Part shown: piece after piece, positions 411-49,530 of the stretch
Layout: every line of letters starts with the position of its first letter
How positions within the stretch are numbered: the first letter of the stretch is position 1
Assembly (NCBI GenBank): GCA_002433235.1
Contig: DJHS01000054.1
Location: forward strand, 17,918-81,917
DNA length: 64,000 bases
Direction of reading: 5' to 3'
Source of the DNA: Verrucomicrobia bacterium UBA6614
Lineage (GTDB): Bacteria; Verrucomicrobiota; Verrucomicrobiia; Limisphaerales; UBA1100
Program-made: the position numbers and the translations under genes
The notes under the pieces: model-generated
Told to the model about the DNA's origin: nothing
What the model saw: only the letters and a program-made list of their open reading frames with translations
Databases searched by the model: none

Positions 411-1823
411 ATGGGCAAGGCCACAGACATTCGAGTCGTTGGGGCGCGGTTGTATTTTCTGCCGGTCCACACGCGCATGCCTTTAAAGTTTGGGGGGGAA
501 ACGGTGACCTTTGTCACCTGCGCCCGGGCCTGCCTGACGGTGCGGGGCAAGGATGGCCGTACGGCGGTGGGTTGGGGGGAAACGCCCCTTAGCGTGACGT
601 GGGTATGGCCGAGCACGCTGGGTTATGAGGAGCGCCATCAGGCGATGCGTGCCCTTTGCAAGAAGCTGGCCCAGGCTTGGGCGGACTGGGATTGCTGGGG
701 GCAAGCAATGGAGGTGGGGCAGGATTTTATTGATGAGGCGCTGCCCGGTCTTTTGGCGGAATTAAATGAAGGGCGCCCGGAGCCGATGCCTTGGCTGGGT
801 GCCTTGGTGTGTTGCTCGGTTTTTGACCAGGCACTTCACGACGCATTTGGAAAAATCCACGGGAAAGATGTGTACGGGATGTATGATGCGGAACACATGA
901 GCCGGTCGCTGGAGGATTTTCTGGAAGCGGAAGGGGCCGTTTCGTTCAAGGGACTGCATCCGGCGGATTTCATGGTGGCATCACCACCAGCCCGGCTTCG
1001 GGCATGGCACTTGGTGGGAGGAGTGGATCCACTGAGCAAGGAAGACCTGACAGGGAGTGAACCGGAGGACGGATATCCGATCTTGTTGGCCGACTGGATT
1101 CAGGAGGACGGCTTGAAATGTTTAAAGATAAAGCTGCGTGGAAACGACGCGGCCTGGGACTATGAGCGGGTGACGAGGGTGGGGGAGATCGCGGTGGCAC
1201 ATGGAGTGGACTGGTTGACAACCGATTTCAACTGCACGGTGACCGAACCGGCCTACGTGAACGAAATCTTGGATCGGCTTTGCGTGGAGCATCCGCGTAT
1301 TTATGGAATGCTGTTATACGTGGAGCAGCCTTTTCCATATGAGCTGGAAAAGGAACGGATCGATACCCACAGTTGCAGCGCGCGCAAGCCGCTGTTTCTG
1401 GATGAAAGTGCGCATGACTGGAAGCATGTGCGGCTGGGGCGGCAGTTGGGCTGGACGGGGGTGGCCTTGAAAACCTGCAAGACACAGACGGGCGCGTTGC
1501 TGAGTGCCTGTTGGGCCAAGGCTCACGGGATGACGTTGATGGTGCAGGACTTGACCAATCCCATGCTGGCGCAGGTGCCTCATGTTCGATTGGCGGCGCA
1601 CGTGGGAACGATCATGGGGGTGGAGACTAATGCGATGCAGTTTTACCCGGAGGCATCGACGGCGGAGGCCGCGGTCTTGCCGGGCATTTATCGACGCCGC
1701 AATGGGTGTGTGGATGTTGGGGAGTTGGCGGGAGCGGGCTTTGGTTATGGCGCCGCGGTTGAGGGCAGGGAATTGCCGGAGGTGGCTTTGGCGTGTGGAG
1801 AGCAGGGGGATTCCGGCTTGTGA
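411..1823 (+). CDS. enolase-superfamily enzyme (mandelate racemase / muconate lactonizing enzyme-like)
   Basis: 470 aa with an ATG start. Spacing of metal- and base-ligand-like motifs is typical of MR/MLE barrels (KIKLRG..., DFNCT, VEQPFP, LDESAHD, KTCKTQ). Confidence 0.75.
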   Translation: MGKATDIRVVGARLYFLPVHTRMPLKFGGETVTFVTCARACLTVRGKDGRTAVGWGETPLSVTWVWPSTLGYEERHQAMRALCKKLAQAWADWDCWGQAMEVGQDFIDEALPGLLAELNEGRPEPMPWLGALVCCSVFDQALHDAFGKIHGKDVYGMYDAEHMSRSLEDFLEAEGAVSFKGLHPADFMVASPPARLRAWHLVGGVDPLSKEDLTGSEPEDGYPILLADWIQEDGLKCLKIKLRGNDAAWDYERVTRVGEIAVAHGVDWLTTDFNCTVTEPAYVNEILDRLCVEHPRIYGMLLYVEQPFPYELEKERIDTHSCSARKPLFLDESAHDWKHVRLGRQLGWTGVALKTCKTQTGALLSACWAKAHGMTLMVQDLTNPMLAQVPHVRLAAHVGTIMGVETNAMQFYPEASTAEAAVLPGIYRRRNGCVDVGELAGAGFGYGAAVEGRELPEVALACGEQGDSGL

Positions 1824-1940
1824 ATAAGTTTGGAATAGAAAAGTGCTGATGTACAATGGGTGGTGCCGACTAATGGGCGTGGACTTGTCTCGGCGGGCCG
1901 GATTTCACTTGAATTGAGGATTTCCTAAAGGCGTCAATCC
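1819..1940 (+). promoter_or_regulatory. conserved non-coding leader element, copy 1 of 2, upstream of Tol-like cassette A
   Basis: Aligns with 9503-9625. Identical blocks are TGTGAATAAGTTTGGAATAGA (21 nt), AGTGCTGATG (10 nt) and GTGCCGACTAATGGG (15 nt), with further similarity through AGGCGTC. It overlaps the stop codon of the upstream gene. Function unknown. Confidence 0.6.
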
Positions 1941-1986: not shown

Positions 1987-4725
1987 ATGTTGAAAGTCAT
2001 GTTTGGTGATCGATTTTGGGTTCATGCGGCCGTTGTGCTGGCTGCGGTTGGTTTTGTGTTTGGGCCGGGTCAAGCTGGGGTGCGGGCGCAGGACAGTGAG
2101 GCGGAGGCGGCTTACGAAGCGGCCGCGGGGTTGTTTAACCTGGGCCTTTGGGAACAGGCGGCGGCGGCGTACAAGGAATATTTCAAGAAACATCCGCGCC
2201 ACACGCTGGCGGGGCACGCGCATTTTGGCTTGGGCTTGTGCCATTTCAACATGAAGGACTATGCCTCGGCCGCCGCGGAATTGAAGGCGGCCACGGGCAG
2301 CAAGGGGCCGGACAAAGTGGAGGCCAACCTGTATCTGGGGCAGGCCTTGATGCTCAAGCAGCCGGCAGTGCCGAAGGATGCAGAGACGGCATTTGAGGCT
2401 TCGTTGAAGACGCTGGGGTTTGCCAAGAAAGGATTCATCGATCGCGAGTGGGACAGTGCCAGCGTGAAGAGTTGGCTGGAAGAGAAGGAGAACGAGAAGA
2501 AGAAGCCGCTGGCGGCGGATGTTTTTATTGGCCTACTGGAGTCGACTTATCTGCAGGGCGACTGGAAATCGGTGGTGCGGAAGTCCGAGGCATTTGAGGG
2601 CTTGGCAAAGGGCTCGGGCGTGGAACAACGGACACGCGTGTTGGCGGGCGAGGCGCAGGAACAGCTGGAGAATTTCGAGGCGGCGGCGGTGGCATACAAG
2701 GCAGCGTCGGAATTGAAGGGCAATGATGCGGCGGAGGCCTTGTTCCGGCTGGGGATCGTGAGACTGAACAACCTGAAGAGTTTCGAGGCGGCGGCGGAGA
2801 ATTTTAATGCTTTTGCCGACAAATACAGGTCCAACCCCAAGCGGCCGGACGCGGCTTTCAATGAGGCGTTGTGCTATTATCAGAGTTACTTTGGTGGGAA
2901 GAAGGAGCACTTGGGGAAGGCGGTGGAGACGTTCGGGGGATTTGCCCGTACGCATCCCCAGCATAAGATGGCGGACACGGCACAGTATTATGTGGGTCGT
3001 TTGGAGCACACGCGGGAAAACTGGGCGGCCACGATCAAGGCCTTGGAGCCATTGATGAAGGAAGAGGTGGATCCGGCGTTTGACCAGTTGGTGTTCCTCG
3101 TGGCCGACAGTTATCACCGGATGCGGAACTGGGGGAAATCCGCGGAGTTGTACATGAAGTTTGCGAAGGGCAATGAGGGCGCGTTGAATGCCGATGTGGC
3201 CCTGCACAACGCGGGGGTGTCCTTTTCCAACTTGAGCAAGCCAGACACGGAGATGGCAATCACGGCCTATGAGTTGCTGGATGCAAAGTGTCCGGGTAGT
3301 CCGCACCTGCCCAGCGCTCGGCTGAAGCTGGGGATCATCCATTACGAGGCTGGCCGTTTTGATGAGGCTCAAAAGCCGCTGGCGAAGATTCCCGCCAACC
3401 ATCCGTTAAAGGCTGATGGCGACTATTATCTGGCGTGGACGGAACTGGACAACAAGCGTCCGGCGGCGGCGGCGGCCCGTTTTGAGGCGCTTGGGGAACG
3501 TTTGGCCAAGGCGGGGGGAAACCATCGATTGGTTCCGTTGTGCCGGCTTTACCAAGGCATTTCTGAATTTGAGGGGCGCAAATTCACCGCTTCGGCGCAG
3601 ACCTTGGGCCAGTTTGTGACGGGATTTCCAGAGCACGAGAAGCTCGATGAGGCGGCGTTTAACATGGGGCTGGCCCAGATGCAGCTTCGCAAGTGGGACG
3701 ACGCCATCAAGAGTTTTGACATTGTCCCGAAAAACTCGGCCATCCACGATCGCGCGCTTTATCAGGCGGCATGGAGCCAGCGCGAGGCCGGCAAGCCCGC
3801 GGAGGCGATCCCCTATTACAAGGCATTTCTGGAGCAACACGCGGACAGCGGGCTGGCCAACAACGTGGCTTTGGAATTGGCGGAAGTGGAGTTTGAGGTA
3901 GGCGGCGAAAATGGCGGTGAAGACGCCGTGGCGCGCTTGACCAAGTTGTTGGCCGGAAAGCCCAACCCGGATCTGCGCCGGTTGGCCCTTTACAGGCTGG
4001 GCATTGTGCAGTTCAGCCGTAAGCAATACCCGGCCTCGGCGAAGGCGTTTGAAGGCTTGCTGGAGGATCCTGCCGCGGCCTTGGTGGTTTCCACCGCGTG
4101 GCAGGCAGGGGAGGCGCGCCGAAACATGGCGCTTACCGCGAGCGGAGATGCGGGCAAGGCCGCGGAGTACAAGGCCGCGTTGGCCAATTATCAGGCTGCG
4201 TTGGCGGCCAAGGCACCGCCGAATGACGTGGGCCAGCTTCGGCTCCAGCAGCAGGCATTGTTGCGCGTGGGCCAGATGTTTGGCGCGCTGGAGGATTGGA
4301 AAAACTCGAATGCCTCCTTCCAGTCATTCATCAAGGATAATCCGCAACATGAGCTCGTTCGCACCGCCTACCTTGGCATGGGCTGGTCCATGCAGAACGA
4401 GGAGAATTATCAGGAGGCCATCGCGGCTTATGAGAAGACTGTGTCCGAGGGGGTGAGGGATGACACCGGTGCCCGCGCACAGTTTCTACTCGGCGAATGC
4501 TACTTCGAGAAAAAGGAATTTGAGAAGGCGATCATTGAGTTTGCGAAGGTGGAAGCGCTGTATGCCTTCCCGGACTGGCAGTCCAAGGCGGCCTATGAGA
4601 TGGCGCAGGCACTGCTGCGGCAGGACAAAAAAGACAGGGCGCGCGAACAGTTCGAGCGCCTGATCAAGCGGTATCCAGATACCAACGCCGCCAACGCCGC
4701 CGCCGAGGAGTTAAAAAACCTCTAG
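1987..4725 (+). CDS. giant periplasmic TPR-repeat protein (YbgF/CpoB- or BamD-like repeats), cassette A
   Basis: ORF 1954..4725. I prefer the ATG at 1987 (MLKVMFGDRFWVHAAVVLAAVGFVFG, a signal peptide). TPR-like A/Y/L periodicity runs throughout. The C-terminal ~150 aa is clearly paralogous to that of 9754..13023 (ARAQFLLGECYF / ARAQFHIGECHL, ...RYPDTNAA / ...KYPKSNAA). Confidence 0.85.
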   Translation: MLKVMFGDRFWVHAAVVLAAVGFVFGPGQAGVRAQDSEAEAAYEAAAGLFNLGLWEQAAAAYKEYFKKHPRHTLAGHAHFGLGLCHFNMKDYASAAAELKAATGSKGPDKVEANLYLGQALMLKQPAVPKDAETAFEASLKTLGFAKKGFIDREWDSASVKSWLEEKENEKKKPLAADVFIGLLESTYLQGDWKSVVRKSEAFEGLAKGSGVEQRTRVLAGEAQEQLENFEAAAVAYKAASELKGNDAAEALFRLGIVRLNNLKSFEAAAENFNAFADKYRSNPKRPDAAFNEALCYYQSYFGGKKEHLGKAVETFGGFARTHPQHKMADTAQYYVGRLEHTRENWAATIKALEPLMKEEVDPAFDQLVFLVADSYHRMRNWGKSAELYMKFAKGNEGALNADVALHNAGVSFSNLSKPDTEMAITAYELLDAKCPGSPHLPSARLKLGIIHYEAGRFDEAQKPLAKIPANHPLKADGDYYLAWTELDNKRPAAAAARFEALGERLAKAGGNHRLVPLCRLYQGISEFEGRKFTASAQTLGQFVTGFPEHEKLDEAAFNMGLAQMQLRKWDDAIKSFDIVPKNSAIHDRALYQAAWSQREAGKPAEAIPYYKAFLEQHADSGLANNVALELAEVEFEVGGENGGEDAVARLTKLLAGKPNPDLRRLALYRLGIVQFSRKQYPASAKAFEGLLEDPAAALVVSTAWQAGEARRNMALTASGDAGKAAEYKAALANYQAALAAKAPPNDVGQLRLQQQALLRVGQMFGALEDWKNSNASFQSFIKDNPQHELVRTAYLGMGWSMQNEENYQEAIAAYEKTVSEGVRDDTGARAQFLLGECYFEKKEFEKAIIEFAKVEALYAFPDWQSKAAYEMAQALLRQDKKDRAREQFERLIKRYPDTNAANAAAEELKNL

Positions 4726-4749
4726 CCAGAGCCTTTGCAAATCCCGCAC

Positions 4750-5607
4750 ATGGAAAAAATCAAATCCCACTTCCTTGTGGCCGTGCATTGCGCGGCACTT
4801 TTGTTTCTGGCGACGGACATCGTGGCCGCGCCGGCTACCAACGCTTCCCCGGCACAACCAGAGGTGGTGGAGACTGAACCCGGCGAGGAAACCCAAACCA
4901 AGACCCAGAAATCCATGTGGGATCTGGTGAGGGCCGGCGGAGCGGTGATGTGGGCGTTGGGTGCGCTGGCGCTGTACGGATTTTATACCGCGGGTTCGCT
5001 AATCTACGTCATCCTGTTTTCCAACGATGCTACCAAGGACAAGAAATTGGTGGGTGATCTTGTGGACTCCGGGGCATCTGCGCACGAAGTCTTGGAGGCT
5101 GAAATTCAGCGGCGCGACAAGGCGGCCTTTCCCCGCATTTGTGAGGCGGCACTGGAAGAGTCTGGCGGCGGCAAGCCAGCCATGGAGGATGCGCTGGTCA
5201 ACGAGGGAGCCATTCAGTTGGGTTCCTTGAAGCGAGGCTTGCGCCCGCTGCAGATCGTGGTGGCAGTGGCGCCCCTGCTGGGCTTGCTGGGCACGGTGTA
5301 TGGCATGATCTCCTCGTTCCAGAGCGTGGAAATCGCTGGCGCTGGTGGCGACAAGGTGGAGCTTCTTTCACGCGGCATCTACGAAGCATTGGTCACCACC
5401 GCCACGGGCCTGACTGTGGCGATTCCCTTCCTCCTCCTGTACCACTGGCTGGGTCGGCGGGTGGACGAAATTGGTGTTAATTTGAATCGACATTCCAAGG
5501 TATTCTTGGAAGCATTCACCTCTGGCGGCCAAAGGGGGTCCACTACAACAACCCAAGAAGCCGCCGTACCGCCGGATGCCCTGCAACCGGCACACAGCGC
5601 CGAGTGA
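4750..5607 (+). CDS. MotA/TolQ/ExbB-family proton channel, cassette A
   Basis: PLLGLLGTVYGMISSF and IYEALVTTATGLTVAIPFLLLYHWL are hallmark ExbB/TolQ TM2-TM3 motifs. N-terminal signal-like helix plus a short acidic/Pro region. The ATG at 4750 is preferred over the TTG at 4735. Confidence 0.9.
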   Translation: MEKIKSHFLVAVHCAALLFLATDIVAAPATNASPAQPEVVETEPGEETQTKTQKSMWDLVRAGGAVMWALGALALYGFYTAGSLIYVILFSNDATKDKKLVGDLVDSGASAHEVLEAEIQRRDKAAFPRICEAALEESGGGKPAMEDALVNEGAIQLGSLKRGLRPLQIVVAVAPLLGLLGTVYGMISSFQSVEIAGAGGDKVELLSRGIYEALVTTATGLTVAIPFLLLYHWLGRRVDEIGVNLNRHSKVFLEAFTSGGQRGSTTTTQEAAVPPDALQPAHSAE

Positions 5608-5608
5608 G

Positions 5609-6025
5609 ATGAAAATGATCGAAGCCCCAGCCGTGGAGGAATCGGGTCTGGACGTGGCCCCGATGATCGATATTCTCTTCACGCTCATTATCTTCTTTCT
5701 GGCGACCACCACCTTCCAAGCGCAGGAACGCGAGGAGCAAATCAAGCTGCCGCGCCATGGTGGCTCGTCCATCAGCAGCAAGGATCGCCCCTATGTGATC
5801 AACGTCACCAAGGACGGCACCTACATTGTGCGGACCGAGACGCTTACCTTGCCGGAACTCCGCGACTCGCTGGAAATGGAATTTAAGGAAAACCCCGAGC
5901 GCAAGGTTCTCATCCGAGGCGATGGCGACGCACTACACAGCCAGAGCACAGCCGCCCTGGCCGCCGCCAGTAATGCCGGCTTCAGTGAAGCCAAAATTGC
6001 GTGGGACACTAGCACTGTCAAGTAA
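5609..6025 (+). CDS. ExbD/TolR-family protein, cassette A
   Basis: APMIDILFTLIIFFL is a TM helix with the conserved Asp. Periplasmic domain motif VLIRGDGDALH. The ATG at 5609 lies 1 nt after the ExbB stop and is in frame with ORF 5576..6025. Confidence 0.9.
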   Translation: MKMIEAPAVEESGLDVAPMIDILFTLIIFFLATTTFQAQEREEQIKLPRHGGSSISSKDRPYVINVTKDGTYIVRTETLTLPELRDSLEMEFKENPERKVLIRGDGDALHSQSTAALAAASNAGFSEAKIAWDTSTVK

Positions 6026-6041
6026 GCCGCCCGTAGCGACC

Positions 6042-9000
6042 ATGAAACTCCAACTCAGAGGCATCTGGAACATCATCGAGTGGGGCTTCGAGTATCTTGC
6101 CGACCGGCTGGGTATTCGCCGGCGACACGTCGTCTTTGGGTTGGTTGTCCTGTTCATCTCTGCAATTTTCACTGGCTGGTATATCTACGAAAAGAACTGG
6201 ACCATCATTGGCACTAAACGCACCGGGGGAACCCGCAAAGTGCTGACGCTGGCACTGGATGGCGAGGCCTCCGCCGTGCAGCAGATGAGCCAAGAAATTC
6301 GGTCTTCCATCCTTGAGACACCCATGGCCGCGGCCTCGTCCCAATCCGCCGCCCAATCTAACTCCGGGGCCAGCGCCGCCGCGCGCAGTACGCCGCAAAA
6401 CACAGATGCCCAATCCGCCGCTGCAGCCGGGGCAAGTTCACCCAGCGCTCCCGCGGCGGCTGGTGCCACCAGCAACTTTACCCCTACCGTTTCCTCATCC
6501 TCCAGCGCTCGTGTGGAATCCGGCCAGGCGCGCGCTGAGAACAGCCAGCAAATGCAGCCCGCGTCCACCCAGTCCGTGGCGCAGCAGGCATCCGGTATAA
6601 ACGCCGCGCGCAGCACGCCGCAAAGCACTTCCTCCCAATCCGCTGCTGCCGCCAATGCCCCCTCGTCCAGTGCGGCCACCGCCTCGGGCGCAAGTGATTC
6701 GTTGGCGCCCACCGCCGCATCGGCACAGGCTAGGGTTGTCACCGGTCAGGCCCGAGCAGAGACCAGTCAACAAATGACCGCGCCCAGTTCGCAAAGCACT
6801 GCCCAGTCCGCAATCGGCAGCAATGCCGCCAGAAGTACCCCGCAGGATGCCTCCGCCCAGTCTGCCTCCGCTGCTAGTAGTGCGACCCCTAATTCCTTGA
6901 GTGCCTCCGGAGCCAGTGCCTCCATTGCACCCTCGGCTTCCAGTGCCCGTGCTGTGGATTCCTCTGTGGCGGCCACGGGCGCGCGCGCGGAGACCAGCCA
7001 GAAAATGGCCTCGGCCACCTCACAATCCATCTCGCAATCCGCCACGGGATTAAACGCAGCCCGCAGCAGCCCGCAGTCGTCCGGCGCGCAGTCCGCCGCC
7101 TCTGCTTCCAGTGCGGCATCCCAGAACAATCCCACGGCGTCAGCCACGGGAGCCAGTACCGCGTTTACACCTTCCAACTCCGGCGCACGGGCTTCGACCT
7201 CTGCCGTGCAGAGCAATAGTGCCCGGGCGGATTCCAGCAGCCAATCCATGTCAGGGGCCGCTTCCCAATCCATGGCACAAGCTTCCAGTAGCGCGCAGGG
7301 CACGGCCCGCAACAGCCCGGCTGGAGGTGCCAGCCACGCGTCGGGATCGGCCAATGCGCGGAGTGCATCCACCACGGTTTCTGGGTCCGGAGCCAGCGGG
7401 GCCTTTGTGCCGTCGGCTTCCGGCATGCGAGCCTCGGCCTCGTCGGTGCAAAGCAACGGGGCACGCGCGGAGACCGGGAGAGCAATGTCCGGCGCTTCTT
7501 CGCGATCGCTGGCGCACGCGTCCACCAGCGCGGGAGGAGCGACCAGGAACAGTCCCGCGGCTACGGCCAGTCAGACGGGTGGATCGGCGGCAGCCCGAAA
7601 CGCCACCACCGCTGTTTCTGGCTCTGGCGCCGGTGCCACGTTTTCGCCATCGGCTTCCGGTGCACGTGCCTCGGTGTCTGCGGTTCGCAGCAATGGAGCA
7701 CGCGCCGTGGCGGGCCGATCGATGTCTGGGGCCTCCTCGCAATCCATGGCCCGTGCATCCAGCGGCTCGGGTGGAGCGGCCCGCAACAGTCCGGCGGCAT
7801 CCGCGGGAGCAGCGGGTGGCTCGGCTCAGGCAAGCAATGCGGCTGCGGCGGTTTCCGGTTCAGGGATAAGGGGCAGCTTTTCGCCGTCAGCTTCCGGCGC
7901 TCGCGCGGCAACTTCAGGGATTCACAGTGGAATGGCCCGGGCAGTTGCTGGCCGATCGATGTCTGGGGTCTCCTCGCAATCCATGGCACAGGCCTCGACC
8001 AATGCGCAGGGATCGGCTCGCAACAGTCCGGTGGGAGCAACGGGGCAGCCAACGGGTTCCGCCAGCGCGATCAACGTGGCGAGTTCGGTTTCCGGCGCGG
8101 GCACGAGCGCGACGTTTGCGCCCTCGGTCTCGGGCTTGCGCGCCTCGGCTTCCGGCGTGCGCACCAATCCAGCCCGCGCGGTGGCAGGCAGAACGATGGC
8201 CCGTGCGCCTTCCCAGAATTTTGCGCAGGCAACAGCCAATGCCTTGAACTCGGCCAGGGTTGGGCCCGCCGCGATGTCCTCACGGATGGCCGGTTCGGCG
8301 CGTGCCAGCAATCCCTCAACGGCAGTGGCGGGGACTGGGGCGAGTGCTTCCTTCCGGCCGTCTTTGGCGGATGGATCGGCTACTCAGGTGGCCTCGGCTA
8401 GGCCCTCGGGCGGGAGTACTCCCAAGCCCACGCCTACGCCCGGTGGATCTAGGCTGGGCGGTGATGCGGTGAACACGGATCAAGTGATGATTCAGGTGGA
8501 TACCCAGTCGCTGTCCCGGCCCGTGGAGGATTTTACCAGCGTGCGCAGCCGGCCGGTCTCGGCGTTCCGGCCACGGACCGTTTCCTCGGCGTCATCCGCG
8601 GTGGCTAGCGTTCCCGAGCAGACTAACAACACGCCCGGCACATTTACGCCGACGGCCGCCCCGGTGCGGCGTCCGGTTCCGACGTTGGTGGATGTGCGGC
8701 CGCCACCACCGCCGCCGGTGCAAGTCGCCCAGGCAAAGCCGGAGGAGATTGAGCCCGTGCGCACACGACCCGTTGCGACTCCCCCGGAATCGGTTCAGGA
8801 CAACACCACCCCGGATTCGAACGAAGGTCTGTCCGCTGTTGAAATTTTTCGTACGCAAGGTTTTAACACCAGGGCCGAGGGCAAGGGGAAGGACTTTGTG
8901 TTCATCATCGACAGGTCGAGCAGCATGTCCGAGGACGACCGGTTGAATGCGGCCAAGCAGGCTCTGACCCGGTCCTTGGAGAAGATGGGGCCGGAAGAGA

Positions 9001-9428
9001 ATTTTTATATTTATTTTTTCAGCGACAAGACGGATGGGATGGATGAGGGAAGAATGGTCTCCGCTACGCCGGGCAATATCAGCAGCACGGGAGGCTGGGT
9101 GAACAGCATGTCGCCCAGTGGATTGACCAACCCGCGCGACGCGCTGAAGGATGCCTTTGCTAAGCTGAAGCCATCCACGATCTGGCTCTTGTCCGACGGT
9201 AAGTTTACCACCGTCAAGCAGGACAACCGCACCGGCAAGGGAAAGACCCGTTTGGTGAAGAAATTGCCGCCGGTCCTGAAGGTGATTCGTGGCCTGAACC
9301 CGAACGGCAATGTGAGAATCAATACGATCGGTTTCGCGGCGAACCAAGGCGATGTGGATGAATCGCTGAAGGAAATTGCCGAGGAAAACGACGGTGTCTA
9401 CACGTTCATCCGCTCGGGCGGCCGTTAG
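6042..9428 (+). CDS. membrane-anchored protein with a ~700-aa S/A/G/T-rich tandem-repeat spacer, a Pro-rich segment and a C-terminal von Willebrand factor A domain
   Basis: ORF 5826..9428. The ATG at 6042 (MKLQLRG...) avoids overlap with exbD. It has one TM helix (VVFGLVVLFISAIFTGWYIY), nine 74-79-aa repeats and RPPPPPPVQVAQAKPEE. The vWA domain has a MIDAS DxSxS motif (DRSSS, nt 8910-8924). Confidence 0.85.
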   Translation: MKLQLRGIWNIIEWGFEYLADRLGIRRRHVVFGLVVLFISAIFTGWYIYEKNWTIIGTKRTGGTRKVLTLALDGEASAVQQMSQEIRSSILETPMAAASSQSAAQSNSGASAAARSTPQNTDAQSAAAAGASSPSAPAAAGATSNFTPTVSSSSSARVESGQARAENSQQMQPASTQSVAQQASGINAARSTPQSTSSQSAAAANAPSSSAATASGASDSLAPTAASAQARVVTGQARAETSQQMTAPSSQSTAQSAIGSNAARSTPQDASAQSASAASSATPNSLSASGASASIAPSASSARAVDSSVAATGARAETSQKMASATSQSISQSATGLNAARSSPQSSGAQSAASASSAASQNNPTASATGASTAFTPSNSGARASTSAVQSNSARADSSSQSMSGAASQSMAQASSSAQGTARNSPAGGASHASGSANARSASTTVSGSGASGAFVPSASGMRASASSVQSNGARAETGRAMSGASSRSLAHASTSAGGATRNSPAATASQTGGSAAARNATTAVSGSGAGATFSPSASGARASVSAVRSNGARAVAGRSMSGASSQSMARASSGSGGAARNSPAASAGAAGGSAQASNAAAAVSGSGIRGSFSPSASGARAATSGIHSGMARAVAGRSMSGVSSQSMAQASTNAQGSARNSPVGATGQPTGSASAINVASSVSGAGTSATFAPSVSGLRASASGVRTNPARAVAGRTMARAPSQNFAQATANALNSARVGPAAMSSRMAGSARASNPSTAVAGTGASASFRPSLADGSATQVASARPSGGSTPKPTPTPGGSRLGGDAVNTDQVMIQVDTQSLSRPVEDFTSVRSRPVSAFRPRTVSSASSAVASVPEQTNNTPGTFTPTAAPVRRPVPTLVDVRPPPPPPVQVAQAKPEEIEPVRTRPVATPPESVQDNTTPDSNEGLSAVEIFRTQGFNTRAEGKGKDFVFIIDRSSSMSEDDRLNAAKQALTRSLEKMGPEENFYIYFFSDKTDGMDEGRMVSATPGNISSTGGWVNSMSPSGLTNPRDALKDAFAKLKPSTIWLLSDGKFTTVKQDNRTGKGKTRLVKKLPPVLKVIRGLNPNGNVRINTIGFAANQGDVDESLKEIAEENDGVYTFIRSGGR
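6280..8400 (+). repeat. in-frame tandem repeat, 9 units of 222-237 nt
   Basis: Repeat landmarks A(A/T)R(S/N)(T/S)PQ/PA recur nine times. Later units are nearly identical at the DNA level (GCCGATCGATGTCTGGGG.CTCCTCGCAATCCATGGC at 7714 and 7951, a 237-nt period). Confidence 0.85.
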
Positions 9429-9502: not shown

Positions 9503-9625
9503 TGTGAATAAGTTTGGAATAGATTAGTGCTGATGATCCCCGACCTGTGCCGACTAATGGGTGCGGTTTGACCATCTCTGGCCGGGTTTCAGGTGAAGTT
9601 GTGGCTTTAGGGAGGCGTCCAAACC
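9503..9625 (+). promoter_or_regulatory. conserved non-coding leader element, copy 2 of 2, upstream of Tol-like cassette B
   Basis: See 1819..1940. By hand count, 48 of the first 60 aligned positions are identical. It lies in a 325-nt intergenic region, 128 nt upstream of the ATG at 9754. Confidence 0.6.
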
Positions 9626-9753
9626 TTCGTTGATAACCCCGTGCCTTGATGGCGTGAACAACTTGTTTAATGTGAACAGGCTTGGGGTTTGGAATAAACG
9701 GTGCTGGAAAAAATTTTCGGTTGCGAAAATTCAAACTCCTACGAGATTAGACT

Positions 9754-12700
9754 ATGCAGACCTCTTCCCTCCCTCCTTTTAAAGAGGGCCGCAAGGCCCG
9801 TGGTGTCGGCGCGCGTGCGCGCCGGTTCGTTTTCCAATGCCTGCTAGGCGCGCTGATGATGTTGCTGGCATTGCCGGCTGCCGCGCAGCAGGACAAGAAG
9901 AAGGATCCCGCGCTGGAGAAATACTTCAACGCCAACGGGCTCTTCAACCGCAAGTTGTATCCGCTGGCGGCGGAGGAGTACGAGGATTTCCTGAAGACGT
10001 ACAAGGATCATCCCAAGACAAAGGACGTGGAGTTTGGCCTTGGGCTGTCCTACTATGGGATGAAAAAATTTGACGCAGCCGCGCCGTTGCTCAAGAAGCT
10101 GGCGGGCGACAAGAATTCCCCCCGCGCGCTGCTGGTTCACCTGTATCTCGGCAACTCCCTGCGCGAGTTGAAAAAGCCCGTGGAGGCGGAGTCTGTCTTT
10201 AAGGATGGTTTGGGCATCAAGGGCGGTGCGGAAAATGCACAATTGCGCAAGGGGCTGCTGGAATGCCTGTTCGACCAGAAAAAGTGGAAGCAGGTGATTC
10301 CCGAGGCGGAAAAGCTGGCGGGTCAGCCTGGTGCCGTGGGGGTGCGGGCAAGTTACCAGGGTGGTATTGCGCGGTTTGAACAGGGAGATTTCAAGGAGGC
10401 GGCGCAAGTGCTGGAGGTGTTAAAGGGTAAGGTGAAAGGCAATGAGGACTACGAGCAGACGACGCTGTACATGCTCGCGGAATCCCGCCGTGAATTGAAG
10501 GAGTTTGACGCCGCGGTGGCGGCTTATGAGGCGGCAGCGGATTTAAAGACGCGCAAGGAGGTGACGGCGGATGCGTTGTACCGTCTGGGCCGTGTCCGGT
10601 TCGATTCGCTGAAGGAATATCCGCAAGCGGCGGAGGCGTTCGGGAAATTCACGCGCGATTTTAAAGGGCACAAGTTGGCGGTGGATGCCGGGGTTTATCT
10701 GGGGCGTTCCCAACTGGAGGCTGGGGAATTTGCCAAAGCGGAGAACGTGTTTGGGGGGTTGGCCGGGGACAACGCATTGATCATTGAGGTTCCGCTGTGG
10801 CAGGCCCGGACATTTTTCCGGCAAAAGAAACACACGGAAGCGGTCAAGGTGCTGGAGGCGGTCAAGGGCAAATTTGCAAACAACGAGAAGCTTCCTGAGT
10901 TGTTGTTTGACCTAGGCAACAATCACTATGAGTTGAACGCGTTTCCGGAGGCGTCCAAGGCGTTCCAGACCCTGATTGCGGATCACGGCACATTTCCGCA
11001 AATGGATGACGCCATGAGGCTTTGCGCTGATTCGTTGCATCGGGAGAAAAAGTATGGAGCCAGCCATGACTTGTGCGGTGAATTCCTGAGCAAATATCCC
11101 AATGACAAGAAGGCTGGTGATGTGGCTTTTCTCCAGTGCGAGAACCTGTTTCTGCAGGACAAGTACAAGGAGGCTGTGGACGGCTTCAAGACGTTTGCGG
11201 ACAAGTACAGCGGTCATCCGCAGGCGGCGGCGGCGAACTATCGCATCGGCAGTTCCCATTACAATCAAAAGGAGTGGATGGAGGCGTTGAAGGTGCTTGA
11301 GCCCTTGGCGCGTGATGAAAAAGTGCGGTCCCGCTTTAAACAAATTGACTACCTTGTGGGTGACTGCAAGTTTCGGACAAAGCAGTGGGCTGCGGCAATC
11401 AAGTCATTCGAGCAATTTGTGGAAGCCAGCCCCGAGGGAGAGAATGCGGACGCGGCATTGCTGATGAGCGGGCTGGCCAGCCAGCAGGCGAAGGATACCA
11501 AGACGGCCATCGCTACGCTGACCAAGCTGACGGACAATTATTCCGGAAGCAGCCAGTTGGCCCAAGCCTATGTGGAAATTGGCAGAATGCAGTATTTGGA
11601 AAAGGAACTGGGCAAGGCACGCGTGGCGCTGGAGGTGGTGAAGGCGCGCCACAATGAGAGCAAGTGGTTGCCTGATGCGGAATATTACTTGGGATTCGTG
11701 GCGCGGGATGAAAACAAACTGGCTGAGGCCGAGAACCATTTTGCGGTGGTGGCGGACCGGCATGCCAAGCACAACTTCGCCGGGGATTCACGCTTCCAAC
11801 AGGGCATCGTCCTTTTGCAGCAGGAAGACTTCAAGGTGGCCCAGGGAGCGCTCGAAAAGCTGCTGGTTGACTATCCAAAGTACAACAAGCTGGACGAAGC
11901 GACCTACCGTCTTGGCTGGGCGCTGGAACAACAAGAGGACTGGGATGCGGCGCTCAAGGAATACTCCAAGGTGGCCGGAGTGAAGGCGGATGGCGACTGG
12001 ATTGACAACGCGTTGTACCAGTCCGCCTGGTGCGAGAAGGGTGCGGGCCGTGATGCCATGGCGATGGAGACCTACAAGAAACTGCTGGCCGAGCATCCGC
12101 AAAGCGACCTGGTGAATCGCGGCAGCTTTGAACTGGCGGAATTGGAGTTTCAGGCCAAGATGTATACGGAAGCTGCCGACCGCCTGTCCGGGTTGCTGAA
12201 ATTGGCAAAGGATGCGGGGTTGAAATCGCGCGCGCAGTACCGGCTGGCTTGGTCCAAGTTTGAGCTGGAGGAATTTGCATCGGCGGCCACGGCATTTGAG
12301 GATTTTGGTGGCATGTTGCCGAACAATCCACCGCAGACATTAAAGGATCTTACCGGCACGGCTGCTTATCAGGCGGGTGAGGCAAGGATGAAACTTGCGG
12401 AAGCGGCGGGTGCGGATGCCGACCGGGCAGCCAGCTACAAGGCCGCGCAGGCCAACTATGAGAAGGCTGTGGCCGAGAAAAATGGCGGTGAGGTGGTCCA
12501 GTCGCAGTCCCTGCTGCGACTTGGAGAATGCCAGGGCCGCCTGGACAACTGGAAGGATTCACAGTCGACCCACGAGCGGTTCATCCAGGCTTTCCCTGGG
12601 CATCGGCTAGTGCGCAATGCCTGGCAGGGCCTCGGGTGGGCGCAGGAAAACCAAGGCGACATTGCCGCAGCAATCACCAGTTACCAGAAGGTGACCGCGG

Positions 12701-13023
12701 AATTGAGAAAGGATGAACTGGGCGCCCGTGCACAATTCCATATCGGTGAATGTCACCTGAAGCTGGCCCGGAAAACGGACGACACCGACGGGAAAGCGGA
12801 TGCCTTTAAGTCTGCCATCAAGGCTTATGCCTATGTGGAGGCTAATTATCCGGAAGAAGTCAGCGAGGAAAAAGGCGCGTGGCAGGCGAGATCAATGCTT
12901 GGCATGGCCACCGCTCTGGACGAGAGCGGCAGTGGCGAGGCGGCACAATCGATTTTAAAGGAGCTGATTGGCAAATATCCAAAGTCCAACGCTGCGACAA
13001 TTGCAAAGAGCCGCATCAAGTAG
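9754..13023 (+). CDS. giant periplasmic TPR-repeat protein (YbgF/CpoB-like repeats), cassette B
   Basis: 1089 aa with a signal peptide (LLGALMMLLALPAAAQQ) and TPR periodicity throughout. Paralog of 1987..4725. Confidence 0.85.
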   Translation: MQTSSLPPFKEGRKARGVGARARRFVFQCLLGALMMLLALPAAAQQDKKKDPALEKYFNANGLFNRKLYPLAAEEYEDFLKTYKDHPKTKDVEFGLGLSYYGMKKFDAAAPLLKKLAGDKNSPRALLVHLYLGNSLRELKKPVEAESVFKDGLGIKGGAENAQLRKGLLECLFDQKKWKQVIPEAEKLAGQPGAVGVRASYQGGIARFEQGDFKEAAQVLEVLKGKVKGNEDYEQTTLYMLAESRRELKEFDAAVAAYEAAADLKTRKEVTADALYRLGRVRFDSLKEYPQAAEAFGKFTRDFKGHKLAVDAGVYLGRSQLEAGEFAKAENVFGGLAGDNALIIEVPLWQARTFFRQKKHTEAVKVLEAVKGKFANNEKLPELLFDLGNNHYELNAFPEASKAFQTLIADHGTFPQMDDAMRLCADSLHREKKYGASHDLCGEFLSKYPNDKKAGDVAFLQCENLFLQDKYKEAVDGFKTFADKYSGHPQAAAANYRIGSSHYNQKEWMEALKVLEPLARDEKVRSRFKQIDYLVGDCKFRTKQWAAAIKSFEQFVEASPEGENADAALLMSGLASQQAKDTKTAIATLTKLTDNYSGSSQLAQAYVEIGRMQYLEKELGKARVALEVVKARHNESKWLPDAEYYLGFVARDENKLAEAENHFAVVADRHAKHNFAGDSRFQQGIVLLQQEDFKVAQGALEKLLVDYPKYNKLDEATYRLGWALEQQEDWDAALKEYSKVAGVKADGDWIDNALYQSAWCEKGAGRDAMAMETYKKLLAEHPQSDLVNRGSFELAELEFQAKMYTEAADRLSGLLKLAKDAGLKSRAQYRLAWSKFELEEFASAATAFEDFGGMLPNNPPQTLKDLTGTAAYQAGEARMKLAEAAGADADRAASYKAAQANYEKAVAEKNGGEVVQSQSLLRLGECQGRLDNWKDSQSTHERFIQAFPGHRLVRNAWQGLGWAQENQGDIAAAITSYQKVTAELRKDELGARAQFHIGECHLKLARKTDDTDGKADAFKSAIKAYAYVEANYPEEVSEEKGAWQARSMLGMATALDESGSGEAAQSILKELIGKYPKSNAATIAKSRIK

Positions 13024-13096
13024 GAGCGACCGGGATACTGGCCCAAATAAAGGACCGGGAACCCAACCCAAAACCCAGACTGTGCAGATTCATAAA

Positions 13097-14044
13097 ATGA
13101 ACCCCGAAAAAAAATCCCCCCGCGAAATTTTGCGGCGGCGGCTGGCGTGGTTTAACGCCGGCATGGCCGCTGTGTGGTTGTTCTTTTGCGTTGGCCTGAC
13201 CCAGGCTTGGACAGCGCCTCCGGCCGCCGCCCCGGCGCCTGGTGCACAACCGGCCAATCCGGTGCCGGCCAATCCCCAGCCGGCTCCAAGTGATGATGCG
13301 GGAACTACGGGCGGCAAAGGCCAGCCGAAAAATTTTTGGGAACTGCTGGTCGCGGGTGGCCCCGTGATGATTCCATTGGCGATCTTTTCCATTGTGGGCT
13401 TGGCCAGCTCCTTCGAGCGCGCCATCAGCCTGTCGCGGGACCGGGTGGTGCCAGGTGGTTTCCTTGCCGGCTTGAAGGAGAAAATCTCGGGAGGCAACGT
13501 GAAGGCTGGCGTCAGCTACTGCGAGCAGGAAGGCCGGGAGACGCCCTTGGGCGAGATGATGAAAGCCGGGCTGGAGAAGGCGCATCAGGGAACCGAACAG
13601 GTTGAAAAGGCCGTGGAAGAGGCGGGCATCCGCGGGGCGGATCGCATGAAGCGCAGCCTGCGGCTGATCAGCCTGGTGGTGGCTATTGCCCCGCTGCTTG
13701 GGCTGGTGGGGACGGTTTACGGGATGATTGACGCCTTCCGTGACCTGAGTAATTTGCAAGAGGGCGCGAGCAAATCTGATGCGTTGTCAGCGGGCATTTA
13801 CGTGGCGTTGGTAACCACCGCCACGGGCCTGACCATCGCGATTCCCTTTCTTGCGGTGTATCATTTTTTGTCCTCCAAGGTGGACCGGTTAGTTGAGGAC
13901 ATGAGCATTGAGGCGCGCCGTTTCATCGACATCTGTCCGACTGGCGACCAAGTCGCCATCGCTGCGGCAGAACCGGCCGCCAGCGAGGGCGATGCTGGCG
14001 ATGACACTTCGCAGTCCGTTGAATCCCCCGCGCTTGCATCATGA
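13097..14044 (+). CDS. MotA/TolQ/ExbB-family proton channel, cassette B
   Basis: PLLGLVGTVYGMIDAF and IYVALVTTATGLTIAIPFLAVYHFL. The ATG at 13097 (MNPEKK...) is preferred over the ORF-track start at 12968, which overlaps the TPR gene. Confidence 0.9.
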   Translation: MNPEKKSPREILRRRLAWFNAGMAAVWLFFCVGLTQAWTAPPAAAPAPGAQPANPVPANPQPAPSDDAGTTGGKGQPKNFWELLVAGGPVMIPLAIFSIVGLASSFERAISLSRDRVVPGGFLAGLKEKISGGNVKAGVSYCEQEGRETPLGEMMKAGLEKAHQGTEQVEKAVEEAGIRGADRMKRSLRLISLVVAIAPLLGLVGTVYGMIDAFRDLSNLQEGASKSDALSAGIYVALVTTATGLTIAIPFLAVYHFLSSKVDRLVEDMSIEARRFIDICPTGDQVAIAAAEPAASEGDAGDDTSQSVESPALAS

Positions 14045-14448
14045 AAATCCGCGCCTCCAGTGACGCTGAAGCCAAGATGGAGATCACTCCGTTGATCGAC
14101 ATCCTGTTCACGCTGATCATCTTTTTCCTCGCTACCTCCACTTTTCAGGAGGAGGAAAATCCCGAGGACATCAATCTGCCCGACAGCACCCGCAAACCCT
14201 CCACCAAGCAGGAGAAATTCCTGGTCATCAACGTTCGTCAAAATGGCGAGATTCAGTTGGGCGATGCGGTGGTGAAGATGGATGTGCTGCGCGCGGCGTT
14301 GAAGCGGGAGCACACGGCAAATCCCACCACCAAGGTAAAGATTCGCGGCGACAATGCTGCTTTGCACGGCAAGGTTTCCGGCGTGCTGCTTGCCTGCAAA
14401 AACGCTGGTTTTGAAACCGCCAACATTGCGTACCACATTGAGCAGTGA
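14041..14448 (+). CDS. ExbD/TolR-family protein, cassette B
   Basis: TPLIDILFTLIIFFLATSTFQ is almost identical to the cassette A copy. ATGA start/stop overlap with the upstream ExbB gene. Confidence 0.9.
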   Translation: MKIRASSDAEAKMEITPLIDILFTLIIFFLATSTFQEEENPEDINLPDSTRKPSTKQEKFLVINVRQNGEIQLGDAVVKMDVLRAALKREHTANPTTKVKIRGDNAALHGKVSGVLLACKNAGFETANIAYHIEQ

Positions 14449-17400
14449 GTGAAGATTCTCCAGAAGCCAATACCAAGGCGCCGAGGTTGAGGACCAGACA
14501 CTGGGTTGTCGGCGCGTCGTGTCTGGCCGTGGCGATGCTGGCTTGGGTCCTGTGGCCAGCGGGCACCAAGACGGTTTATACCGACAATATCTCCGCCCGT
14601 GTTGATGCTGAGGATGTCACCCTGCGTGATGTTATTTGGGAACATCCCACGCCCGTGTTTCCCGGCAATCGTGACGAGGATGAACGGTATGATCCCGATG
14701 TGTCCGCCGACAATCTGACATTGGTCTTCGTCAAGGGCCGACCTGGCGAAGGGGCGGACCTATTTGTTGCCAAGCGCGAGGGGGAAGGCTGGGGTGAGGC
14801 CAGGTCGCTTGAGGATTTAAACACTGAATATGATGAACTGGGCCCCTCGTTCAGCCGGGATGGCAAGTGGTTGTTCTTCTATTCCAACCGTTCGGGAGGC
14901 TTGGGTGGCTATGATATCTGGGTATCCCGGCTTGGCGATTCAGGGTGGGAAGAACCGGTCAATCTTGGCCCCGCCATTAACACCGCTCATCACGAAATCG
15001 ATCCCACCGTGCACGATGCGCCCGTTGGTCGGATCGCTAAGGAAAACGAGACCCAAGGCGAGCCCGGATGGCAGGTTAAGGACCTCTATTTTGCGTCCAG
15101 CAGACCGCTTGGGGATTCAGCACCTCCACGCTGGAGAGGCACAGCGCGTGAGCAGGCTGTCCCGAGGGGAGATTTCAATTTGTTTCATGCCACCAACGAT
15201 GCAGCTGAGGGGCTGCAATTCACCGACGCCTCTCCGTTGTCAGCCTTGAACACAAAGGGGGATGACGCCCAGCCCACCATTACGCGGCGCGGCAACTATC
15301 TTTACTTTTCCTCCAACGGCCGCGGTGGCGCTGGAGGATTTGACCTGTTTCGCAGCCGTATTGAACGGAGGGCGTTCAAGGTGGTTGAGTTGCTGGACCG
15401 CAGCGTCAACACGCCCGCCAACGAAACCGACCCCACCCTGTTTCGAGACGGGCATCGTCTGGTGTTCAGTTCCGACCGTGCCCCGCATGGCCCCCGTTAT
15501 CAATTGTACGAGACTATCACCCGTGAGGTTTTTCCAATGGCCGAGGCGCCAGCGAAGGAACAGCCGGCTGTAGGCGGTGGCTTTCTGGATTTGTTCGAGA
15601 AATACAAGTGGTGGTTCGCGCTTCTGTTGTTGTCACTGTTGGCCCTGCTCGCGTTGTTGAAGAGTATGGCCAACGAGTCCCGTCGCGCACAGCTTTCCCT
15701 GATGCAGCGTTGCCTGCTGGGTTCCCTTGGCTTGCACATGTTGCTCGCGTTTTTGCTCAGCCTGTGGCTCATCTCCGAGGCCATTTACAAGCACGTCAAG
15801 GAACAGGTCGTTGAAATCACGCTGACCAATGACGACGAGGCCAGGCAAGAGGAGGAGGAGGCATTAAACAAACCCGTGCAAGCAAACCTCGCCCAAGCTT
15901 CGGCACAACTGCCCACCCCACGGGAGCCGAATACACCGTCAGATCCGGATGCCCAACCCGTTGAGCCGACCCCGCCCAACGTGGATACCACACAAGTGAA
16001 GCCGGATGAAATGGCTATCAAGCCACCCGAGGTCACGCTTCCTGACACCGAACCTGAAACCCTACGCACGCCGCAGTTGCCTACCGATTCCAATCAGCCG
16101 GCAACGCCGCAATTGCCCCGTGAATTGCTCGAGACTGCTCAGGTTACACCGGCTGCGGCCAGTCCGAAAGCCGCACCTGTGCCTAACGACCTGAAGGTAA
16201 ACCCTTCCCCACAGCAGCAGACTGCGGCTAATCCCGCCAGCACCAGCGCCCAGGCCCCCACTCCCGCCACTCAAAATCCAGCCACCGCAAAGCCGCTGGA
16301 ACAAACCGCCAACACAAGGGTCAACACCGAACGCTTAACTCCGGTTGAATCCGAGCAGTCCCTGCCCAAGCTCGAGGTGTCCGTGAACAAGGAACAACTT
16401 GAGCAATCGCATAAGACAACTGCCGATTCCAGCCAAAAAATGGTTAACGCCAGCGACAATCAGCAGGTCAAGGCCCAGCCATCAGAAACTCCGAGAACCC
16501 AGCCCGCGGCGACAAACACCCAAACGCCCGCGTCCCAGCCTGTGAAAGCGGCTCAGTCTCTTCCAAAAGAACAATCTCTGGAATCAATGGCTAGTTTGCC
16601 TACGCTGGAGACATCCCAACCCGCCAGCCAGCCAGACACCAGTCCGGCAACCCAAGCTTCGGCTGTGAAGCAGGAAACCAACACCACATCCGCCGCTTCA
16701 ACGCGCAAATTGGCAAATGCTTCCAGCGCCCAATCCTTGCCCAAGCAACCGACACAGGCCGCCACCGCCCGCCCCGAGCCACGAGAAGCCCTCAATACCG
16801 TTAATGTCCAGACCCAAAATACCACAACCGCCACCAAGGAATCAGCCATTGAATCCGCTTCAAAGCCCGCAAACGCGGTCAATCCCAATGCGCCGGCCGC
16901 GGTGCCGAAGGCTGAAGCTGCGCAAGTCTCCTCTGTAAAGCAGACCACAACGTCCAACACCGTAGAGGCTGCACAAACGCTCGAGCAGGCAACAGCCACT
17001 CAGCCACTTGTCCAGCAACCGGCTCCATCCTCAACTAGCAACGCTACTCCAACCGAAGCAAAATCCCAACCGGTAGAGGCCACTCCAGCCGCGTCACAAA
17101 GTGTGGCAGCTAAGGAGACGTCAGCACAAACCGAGGCAACGGAAGCCGCCCTCCACAAGAACAGCCAAGCATCTCCCAAGGCCGCAACCGTAGACACCAA
17201 TTCTATTGCCATGGAACAGAACCAGACGGCCGCCGAGCAGGGCAGTCAACTGTCTCATGCGGCCAGCCAGCAGACCGTTGCTCCGCAGTCCACGCCCAAT
17301 GCGCAGTCGGCACCCGCTCAAGCAAGTGTTAAAGCTGCGCAATCCACGCCCATCAATGCCCAGACCACCGCACAAACCCAGCAAGCCACTCAAACCCCCA

Positions 17401-29996: not shown

Positions 29997-30076
29997 GTCC
30001 AATCGCGTTGACTTGCCGTGGGCGCGGCACTATACACGCGGCGAACACCAAAGCAATCCCTCGTTAATTTTTTATC

Positions 30077-49368: not shown

Positions 49369-49494
49369 AGGGCGGATTCTAGAGGGGGAAGAAACCAGAA
49401 TGCGAGTTTTCTGTGAATAGTGTGAATAAAGCTGGAAAAAACCCCTTTAAATGGTCATTTTTGTGGTTGACCTATGTGAATAAATATAAATAAA

Positions 49495-49530
49495 GTGTTG
49501 CGTTGTGTGGCGAAGTGGGTTAATAGTGCA
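49495..49530 (+). promoter_or_regulatory. putative MraZ operator (direct GTG-core repeats at ~10-nt spacing)
   Basis: GTGTT (49495), GTGTGG (49505), GTGGG (49515) and GTGCA (49526) are spaced 10, 10 and 11 nt apart and lie 12-47 nt upstream of the mraZ ATG. Confidence 0.45.

Follow-up and report, generated by a model that had tools for sequence, protein, structure and literature searches.

The 64,000-nt stretch of contig DJHS01000054.1 of Verrucomicrobia bacterium UBA6614 that was analysed (here called the window) contains two paralogous gene cassettes, each headed by a giant TPR gene and each preceded by a copy of the same non-coding element of about 122 nt, and the question raised by this locus is what the element does there. 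An earlier note, made from the sequence alone, had offered a shared promoter or operator, an RNA element of the 5′ untranslated region (UTR) or a small RNA (sRNA), and had leaned towards protein-binding DNA over an RNA fold; that leaning is upheld by two modules of fixed spacing, the lack of a match in Rfam and the lack of a conserved fold. We consider that the element is probably a shared DNA control region of two paralogous Tol-Pal-like operons, consisting of a factor-binding box and an extracytoplasmic function (ECF)-like promoter. Conservation, fixed spacing, locus specificity and the absence of a conserved RNA structure were observed, as described below.

Global alignment of copy 1 (1819-1940) with copy 2 (9503-9625) gave 92 identical columns of 126 (73% identity), with 48 identities in the opening 60 columns, which reproduces the count that the earlier note had made by hand; its coordinates and perfectly conserved blocks were also recovered on re-alignment, the blocks AGTGCTGATG and GTGCCGACTAATGGG being unchanged between the copies. 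The local alignment score was 75, compared to a mean of 18.4 (standard deviation 2.5) and a maximum of 32 for 1000 dinucleotide-preserving shuffles. The 21-mer TGTGAATAAGTTTGGAATAGA was found at exactly two sites in the window, 1819 and 9503; no third site was present in the window at up to 3 mismatches, and shuffles also gave none. The sequences flanking the two copies aligned poorly, as had been claimed, and the distances given in the note from the end of the element to the ATG of the TPR gene proved correct, at 46 nt in copy 1 (ATG at 1987) and 128 nt in copy 2 (ATG at 9754). An upstream enolase-superfamily (MR_MLE_C) gene runs into copy 1, with its stop codon at 1821-1823. Coding conservation does not account for the similarity, because the frame is interrupted where the two copies are gapped. 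Since the TPR proteins encoded behind the two elements are merely 33% identical to each other, the 73%-identical non-coding stretch is under constraint.

To evaluate the distribution of the element, an nhmmer profile was made from seven full-length homologues (both window copies and those of loci L006, L007, L002, L055 and L056) and run against 972 kb of sequence. The matches were the seven members of the profile and one weak match at another TPR-upstream site. The elements of L006 and L007 are from the same species as the window, that of L002 precedes a cassette-2 orthologue (TPR identity 68%), and those of L055 and L056 precede cassette-1 orthologues (TPR identity 71 and 68%, respectively). 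The element is thus kept at orthologous loci of relatives and is not dispersed over the 972 kb, two of the points on which the earlier note had let its proposal depend. A scan of a metagenome collection with a two-block pattern yielded one true match, in the same species and at the same locus, and two chance matches. On the sequences compared, the full 122-nt form is limited to a narrow clade of nearest relatives. The paralogous copies in the window are 65% alike (79% in the 5′ half) versus 50-59% for the orthologous copies in L002, L055 and L056, which fits co-evolution of both copies with the same trans-acting factors, or some gene conversion. As an observation in its own right, this pattern suggests concerted evolution of both control regions.

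As judged from these comparisons, the element is made up of two or more separable modules that differ in phylogenetic depth. The conserved stretch described in the earlier note is real, but its description as a single unit of 122 nt does not hold. The outer modules, which we call A (5′) and B (3′), recur before orthologous TPR-TolQ-TolR cassettes in many Verrucomicrobiota metagenome-assembled genomes (MAGs), and both core motifs extend to MAGs with a TPR identity of 33-52%. The modules keep their internal spacing across distant lineages, while the spacer sequences vary freely. A middle box (consensus GyGCCGAyTAATGG) is confined to the closest clade. The TTCA-nn-TGAA palindrome and the GTGCTGA/GTGCCGA repeat that the note had singled out were found to be clade-specific, and the features conserved instead are TGTGAAYAA, sCTGA and TGAAk-N17-CGTC.

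Module B has the general form TGA[A/G/T][G/T]-N17-CGTC[C/G/A]A, or TGAAk-N17-CGTCsAA in short, and in 13 distinct lineages, with unrelated spacers, it is located 77-160 nt 5′ of the start codon of the TPR gene. The spacer is exactly 17 nt save in one case (16 nt, cassette 2 of L056), and CGTC is invariant in the 13 lineages and both window copies. The strict pattern had 24 matches in 657 kb versus 1-7 in shuffles, about 15 of the 24 at the TPR-upstream position; within the window there were 3 matches against 0.18 expected, the third being intragenic. Because two short blocks keep a fixed distance across a free spacer, module B would be a site at which a protein reads DNA. In ECF promoters, the −10 region typically has a ‘CGT’ motif, in many cases CGTC, and the spacer is about 16 ± 1 nt (PMC3426412). 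Both features, a CGTC −10 block and a spacer in that range, are present in module B. The likeness to ECF (group 4) promoters, such as ECF41 with TGTCACA-N16-CGTC, extends to a bipartite arrangement, a short −35, the invariant CGTC −10, a free spacer of fixed length, and a location 45-130 nt 5′ of envelope-function operons. The RpoE promoter consensus is GGAACTT-N16-TCTGA. Unlike ECF promoters, module B has TGAAk without AAC as its −35 block, and there is no cognate sigma or anti-sigma gene nearby. The cognate sigma/anti-sigma pair of an ECF promoter is usually encoded next to it and autoregulated, and transcription begins 5-9 nt past the −10 block in dependence on that sigma. Because the −35 lacks AAC and no ECF sigma gene is present in the loci, we call module B ECF-like and do not file it as a typical or proven ECF promoter. 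The transcription starts that we infer for it are at approximately 1942-1946 in copy 1 and 9626-9630 in copy 2.

Module A consists of the box TGTGAAYAAsTT, an A/T-rich hexamer 7-9 nt farther on, and then sCTGA(C). The hexamer (variants TAGATT, TAGAAT, GAAAAT, AAGATT, AACATT, TAAAAT and GATAAT) has an A at position 2 and a T at position 6 in nearly all lineages, and the interval between position 7 of the box and sCTGA is fixed at 19-20 nt in most lineages. At the TPR cassettes, one strong box is followed 10-12 bp downstream by a degenerate direct repeat (the window has TTGGAATAG, for instance, and L061 has GAACAACTTG/GAAGAACTTG), and there is no GTG array. In 1.31 Mb of verrucomicrobial sequence, searched on both strands, 16 of 22 TGTGAAYAA sites fell in the 19 kb that constitute the TPR-upstream sequence. 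The sequence TGTGAATA occurs five times in the window, where 0.75 is expected, and all five sites are intergenic and on the + strand. The box was absent before other operons of the same loci (argJ, eamA, thuA, GFO_IDH and ahpC) and from the canonical sigma-70 promoter of the window (TTGACT-17-TATACA, 30002-30077), and for this reason it appears to mark a small regulon rather than to be a general promoter feature.

A second class of module A sites was found in relatives, with the fixed geometry TGTGAATAk-N7-TTGCGC-N17/18-TAGnnT-..GAGGAGG, right after the stop codon of a TPR gene of about 290 amino acids (aa) and 5′ of a TPR gene of about 350 aa and an MR_MLE_C gene. In the species of the window, such a site is placed just beyond the left end of the window. 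The weak partial third copy of module A at 9671 and an extended similarity to the region upstream of mraZ had p values of approximately 0.03-0.04, which is marginal, and were not relied on. The partial copy also has GG-N10-GC, the spacing of a sigma-54 promoter. An upstream half-site, ATTCAC-N4-GTGAAT, scored at least 4/6 at 13 of 31 sites versus 19% of background windows; this is a hint only, as the lineages are not independent.

What might bind module A was evaluated by comparison with known systems. Read on the other strand, TGTGAATAA is exactly TTATTCACA, a full match to the DnaA-box consensus TTATNCACA (PMC1888806). This variant, the one with A, is alone enriched in the loci, with 16 occurrences of TGTGAATAA, 3 of TGTGTATAA, and none with G or C. 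In the window copies, the second degenerate 9-mer TTGGAATAG follows the box after 2 bp. The resulting 11-bp phasing of the two 9-mers resembles that of DnaA arrays, and the box variants observed (TTGTTCACA and CTATTCACA) differ at positions that are known to be tolerant of change in DnaA boxes. Unlike in the DnaA consensus, position N, which is variable there, is T throughout, and conservation runs 3 nt past the 9-mer; the boxes before mraZ (see below) are only loosely kept in a relative. No dnaA gene was found in the loci compared. Given the perfect match of the box to the DnaA-box consensus, DnaA is one candidate for the binding protein. Module A may be bound by DnaA, by a response regulator of the tandem-binding kind or by another factor, and we make no choice among them.

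The remaining three TGTGAATA boxes in the window lie before mraZ, two of them in tandem with a 9-nt spacing, and they possibly belong to the same regulon as the TPR cassettes. A reading of these boxes as an oriC was rejected, there being no switch in GC skew in the window. They are just upstream of a canonical MraZ operator, GTGT-N6-GTGT-N6-GTGG at 49495-49518, which is followed by N7-GTGC to 49529 and by mraZ at 49542-50006. Directly 5′ of this operator there is a likely dcw promoter, TTGACC-18-TAAAGT. In the relative L067 (MraZ identity 77%), the MraZ boxes are kept as GTGT-N6-GTGG-N6-GTGT, and the TGTGAATA boxes are approximate only (TGTGAGTAA and TGTGAAATAA), in a 10-nt phase with the MraZ boxes. 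An MraZ operator contains at least three GTG(G/T) boxes with 6 nt between them (PMC12957436). The element differs from this in that its GTG boxes are 23 and 20 nt apart with no 6-nt-separated array, and in having a single strong box in which 9-12 nt are conserved instead of GTG(G/T) and A is the fourth base.

Module A is also like the boxes of OmpR/PhoB-type regulators, such as the pho box CTGTCAT-N4-CTGTCAT or the ArcA TGTTAA repeats at 11-bp spacing, in that direct repeats, non-palindromic and in tandem at 10-12 bp (TGTGAA..TTGGAA for the window, GAACAACTTG/GAAGAACTTG for L061), are found at a −35-like position; it is unlike them in that the second repeat is poorly conserved. With Fur-controlled exbBD/tonB operons, the cassettes share a putative upstream operator before an ExbB/ExbD-family operon. 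The element has no Fur box (GATAATGATAATCATTATC), the best matches being 9/19 and 11/19, no better than in shuffles. A CRP-like palindrome (TGTGA-N6-TCACA) was found in L001 and L009 only, with N7, and the half-site spacing was unsuitable for an ARG box; both were rejected. The coordinates of the features described here, and of the cassettes and leaders considered farther below, are collected in Table 1.

Table 1. Positions of the element, its modules, related sites and the two cassettes. Positions refer to the window unless a locus is given.
Feature	Position	Strand	Remarks
Element, copy 1	1819..1940	+	5′ of cassette 1, non-coding
Element, copy 2	9503..9625	+	5′ of cassette 2, non-coding
Module A box TGTGAATAAGTT, copy 1	1819..1830	+	nt 1-9 form the reverse complement of TTATTCACA; overlaps upstream stop codon
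Module A box TGTGAATAAGTT, copy 2	9503..9514	+	
−10-like hexamer TAGAAA (1836-1841), then GTGCTGA (1843-1849), copy 1	1836..1849	+	read from sequences
TAGATT (9520-9525), then GTGCTGA (9527-9533), copy 2	9520..9533	+	
Middle box GTGCCGACTAATGGG, copy 1	1863..1877	+	clade-specific; also in L002, L055, L056
Middle box GTGCCGACTAATGGG, copy 2	9547..9561	+	clade-specific
Module B, copy 1	1910..1937	+	TGAAT 1910-1914, 17-nt spacer, CGTCAA 1932-1937 (CGTC 1932-1935)
Module B, copy 2	9594..9621	+	TGAAG 9594-9598, 17-nt spacer, CGTCCA 9616-9621 (CGTC 9616-9619)
Weak partial third module A copy (TGTGAACAG..GTTTGGAATAAACGGTGCTGG)	9671..9715	+	inside cassette-2 leader
TGTGAATA boxes before mraZ	49412, 49421, 49475 (span 49412..49483)	+	mraZ/dcw promoter region, queA-mraZ intergenic
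Second class of module A sites	L055:6356, L056:115, L058:4276, L061:3930, L064:3843, L034:1128, L006:9867		L006 site on − strand
Cassette 1	TPR 1987-4725, TolQ-like 4735-5607, TolR-like 5576-6025, VWA protein 5826-9428		
Cassette 2	TPR 9754-13023, TolQ-like 12968-14044, TolR-like 14041-14448, PD40 giant protein 14445-20582		
Leader GGTTGCGAAA of cassette-2-type TPR genes	9718-9760, L001:9960-10005, L002:375-420, L056:11100-11145		

From these patterns we infer promoter function, start sites, and the kind of sigma factor and binding protein involved, as follows. The element would act as DNA, with at least two working parts, for both of the operons that encode a YbgF/CpoB-type TPR protein, a TolQ-like protein, a TolR-like protein and a giant periplasmic protein. 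In the 3′ part, RNA polymerase with an ECF-like (group 4) sigma factor would start transcription a few bases past CGTC, which would give leaders of about 45 nt for cassette 1 and about 127 nt for cassette 2. The 5′ box TGTGAAYAAsTT, with the repeat or A/T-rich hexamer 10-12 bp on and the sCTGA, would be the site of a trans-acting protein, and the ECF-like promoter would sit about 90 nt downstream of it. The module A protein would either control the downstream promoter or form a second, factor-dependent upstream promoter, and it may tie the cassettes, the neighbouring TPR/MR_MLE operon and mraZ-dcw into a small envelope/division regulon. We regard as doubtful a more specific form of this proposal, in which DnaA itself (the TGTGAAYAA boxes then being true DnaA boxes) or another cell-cycle regulator would bind these boxes and co-regulate mraZ-dcw and multiple giant Tol-Pal-like machines atop an ECF-type envelope-stress promoter. 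As a kind of element, a promoter with an operator is ordinary; the motifs and the regulon outlined appear to be undescribed.

Several results weigh against this interpretation. The usual ECF ‘AAC’ of the −35 region is absent from module B, in which AA is never followed by C (TGAAG, TGAAT, TGATG or TGAGG). No ECF sigma gene was found by tblastn with RpoE and SigW over the 972 kb, no sigma domains were found in the small genes inside the cassettes of relatives, and no ECF sigma or anti-sigma gene was found in any locus. Cassette 1 of L056 has a degenerate module B. The distances between modules A and B are 47, 80, 89-91, 105-106 and 148 nt, so that helical phasing is not constant. The geometry of module A varies by site class, the box being 7-9 nt 5′ of a −10-like hexamer at the TPR cassettes and 7 nt 5′ of a −35-like TTGCGC at the neighbouring-operon sites. 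A hairpin at 1881-1899 (GGACTTG..CGGGCC), between the modules, shows some compensatory changes, e.g., ACTTT..AAAGC in L056. Lastly, a 224-nt metatranscriptome contig (1730-1953, from the one run that had the sequence, with nothing over copy 2) crosses the element from the upstream gene, such that read-through or DNA carry-over is not separable from initiation.

The alternative that we take most seriously, although it is unlikely, is that module A is itself the main promoter, read by a housekeeping sigma on TAGAWW, with a start in CTGA and a long 5′ leader to the start codon. The TGTGAATAA box, at approximately −30 to −22, would then be the site of a repressor or a sigma-replacing activator, and GCCGACTAATGGG, TGAAk and CGTC would work within the leader RNA or serve as roadblock operators, and not as a second promoter. 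The position of the hexamer behind the box and its A2 and T6, kept in nearly all lineages, are consistent with this, as are the perfect extended −10 of L002 (TGGTAGAAT), the same geometry at the third mraZ box, between TTGACC and TAAAGT, and the location of sCTGA where a purine start would fall. However, no −35 is conserved and a promoter scanner gave no conserved sigma-70 promoter, and an exact N17 between TGAAk and CGTC with a free spacer in 13 lineages is the pattern of a DNA-reading protein and not of a leader RNA, for which a conserved fold is also lacking. Other sigma readings were tried and rejected. A canonical sigma-70 promoter has TTGACA-like and TATAAT-like hexamers spaced by 16-18 nt; such a pair, TTGGAA-16-TACAAT, is in copy 1 only and is missing in copy 2, L002, L055 and L056. 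For sigma-54, both copies have GG-N11-GC (TTGGAATAGAnnAGTGC), off by one from the GG-N10-GC of TGGCAC-N5-TTGC, and the spacing is N9-N11 among the homologues. For sigma-28, TAAGTTT..GCTGATG or GCCGAyTAA compared to TAAA-N15-GCCGATAA had the wrong spacing or core in every register tried.

That the element works as a cis-regulatory RNA or sRNA, transcribed from near CTGA, with a single-stranded GCCGACUAAUGGG box as seed or ligand site and the 1881-1899 hairpin plus a U-rich stretch as a terminator or attenuator, seems improbable. In the predicted hairpin, at alignment columns 67-85, both partners of four pairs have changed and 93% of the cells can pair; a terminator-like hairpin followed by GGTTTTGAG occupies the corresponding place in L055, and the metatranscriptome contig puts the region in RNA. 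However, the hairpin structure came from the very alignment in which its pairs were counted, G-U accounts for many of these pairs, and the RNA contig begins 89 nt upstream of the element. There was no Rfam match to the element at the gathering score or even at E ≤ 10, in keeping with the earlier note, which had recognised no known RNA motif. Single-sequence folds gave z-scores of +1.5 and −0.3, folds of both strands were no better than shuffles, and the RNAalifold consensus of the seven homologues (135 columns) was −3.3 kcal/mol, with no conserved fold. A search for a hairpin plus T-run between modules A and B found nothing consistent across lineages. Thus, of the 5′-UTR RNA and sRNA options of that note there remains one short hairpin with some compensatory changes, and no consistent terminator, Rfam match or fold. 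It is very unlikely that the similarity is without a function of its own, left over from cassette duplication or maintained by gene conversion between the copies. Gene conversion would also make copies within a genome more alike than orthologues, but the coding parts have gone down to 33% protein identity while non-coding blocks stayed identical, other species retain these blocks before cassettes of either type, and the core motifs reach the MAGs of 33-52% TPR identity mentioned above. A dispersed repeat, such as a repetitive extragenic palindrome (REP) or a miniature inverted-repeat transposable element (MITE), can hardly be credited: the presence of two copies in one window is all that speaks for it, and against it are the restriction to just these two in 64 kb, the 972-kb profile search that found sites upstream of TPR cassettes only, the single true match in the metagenome scan, from the same species and locus, and the absence of terminal inverted repeats and target duplications.

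If the element is a shared DNA control region, as we favour, the footprint supplies two motifs, TGAAk-N17-CGTCsAA and TGTGAAYAAsTT, for marine Verrucomicrobiota, of whose promoters and regulons almost nothing is known. It also defines a set of target operons, namely the Tol-Pal-like cassettes (giant TPR, PD40/VWA), the neighbouring TPR/enolase-superfamily operon and possibly mraZ-dcw, with a hint at joint control of cell division and these unusual envelope machines. Regulon annotation of MAGs and the choice of promoters for genetic tools are possible uses of the motifs. Were the DnaA or cell-cycle version of the proposal true, the outcome would be a compact replication-division-envelope regulon, directly co-regulated by the replication initiator, and the phylum is one in which gene regulation has hardly been studied.

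Both cassettes consist of four genes, one each for a large TPR protein, a member of the MotA/ExbB family, a member of the ExbD family and a giant protein. The giant protein of cassette 1 is 1200 aa and has VWA domains, and that of cassette 2 is 2045 aa and has PD40 (TolB-like) repeats and SQHop_cyclase-like domains. The TPR proteins scored 184 and 272 bits with the NCBIfam Tol-Pal YbgF/CpoB model, above its curated cut-off of 90, and TolQ and TolR were the top-ranked NCBIfam models for the two small proteins, with scores under their cut-offs. By these models, Tol-Pal-like suits the cassettes better than TonB-type; the earlier name of TPR-ExbBD cassettes is to be corrected, since the family models point to YbgF/CpoB-type TPR, TolQ and TolR. 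The window is from a marine verrucomicrobial population, and the locus L007, from a Tara Red Sea MAG, is 98% identical to it.

Additional features of the cassettes and their relatives were seen. The giant TPR proteins contain 5-9 tandem YbgF/CpoB-like units, and the cassettes resemble oversized Tol-Pal-like systems. The VWA protein gene has four tandem units at a 237-nt spacing (62-71% identity) in 7240-8069 and a 225-nt-spaced repeat in 6377-6691, both of which are internal protein repeats. A conserved leader, GGTTGCGAAA..ACGAsATTA..ATGCAGA, abuts the start codon of the cassette-2-type TPR genes and is separate from the 122-nt element. In Opitutales MAGs (L014:5950-5986, L024:5930-5965, L016 and L025), the TPR gene comes after a gene with a CsrA-looking translation, the CsrA label being our own judgement from the DNA. 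About 30 nt before the TPR start codon, these MAGs have a perfect palindrome, TTCACG-N4-CGTGAA, and the GTGAA half-site is common to this palindrome and module A.

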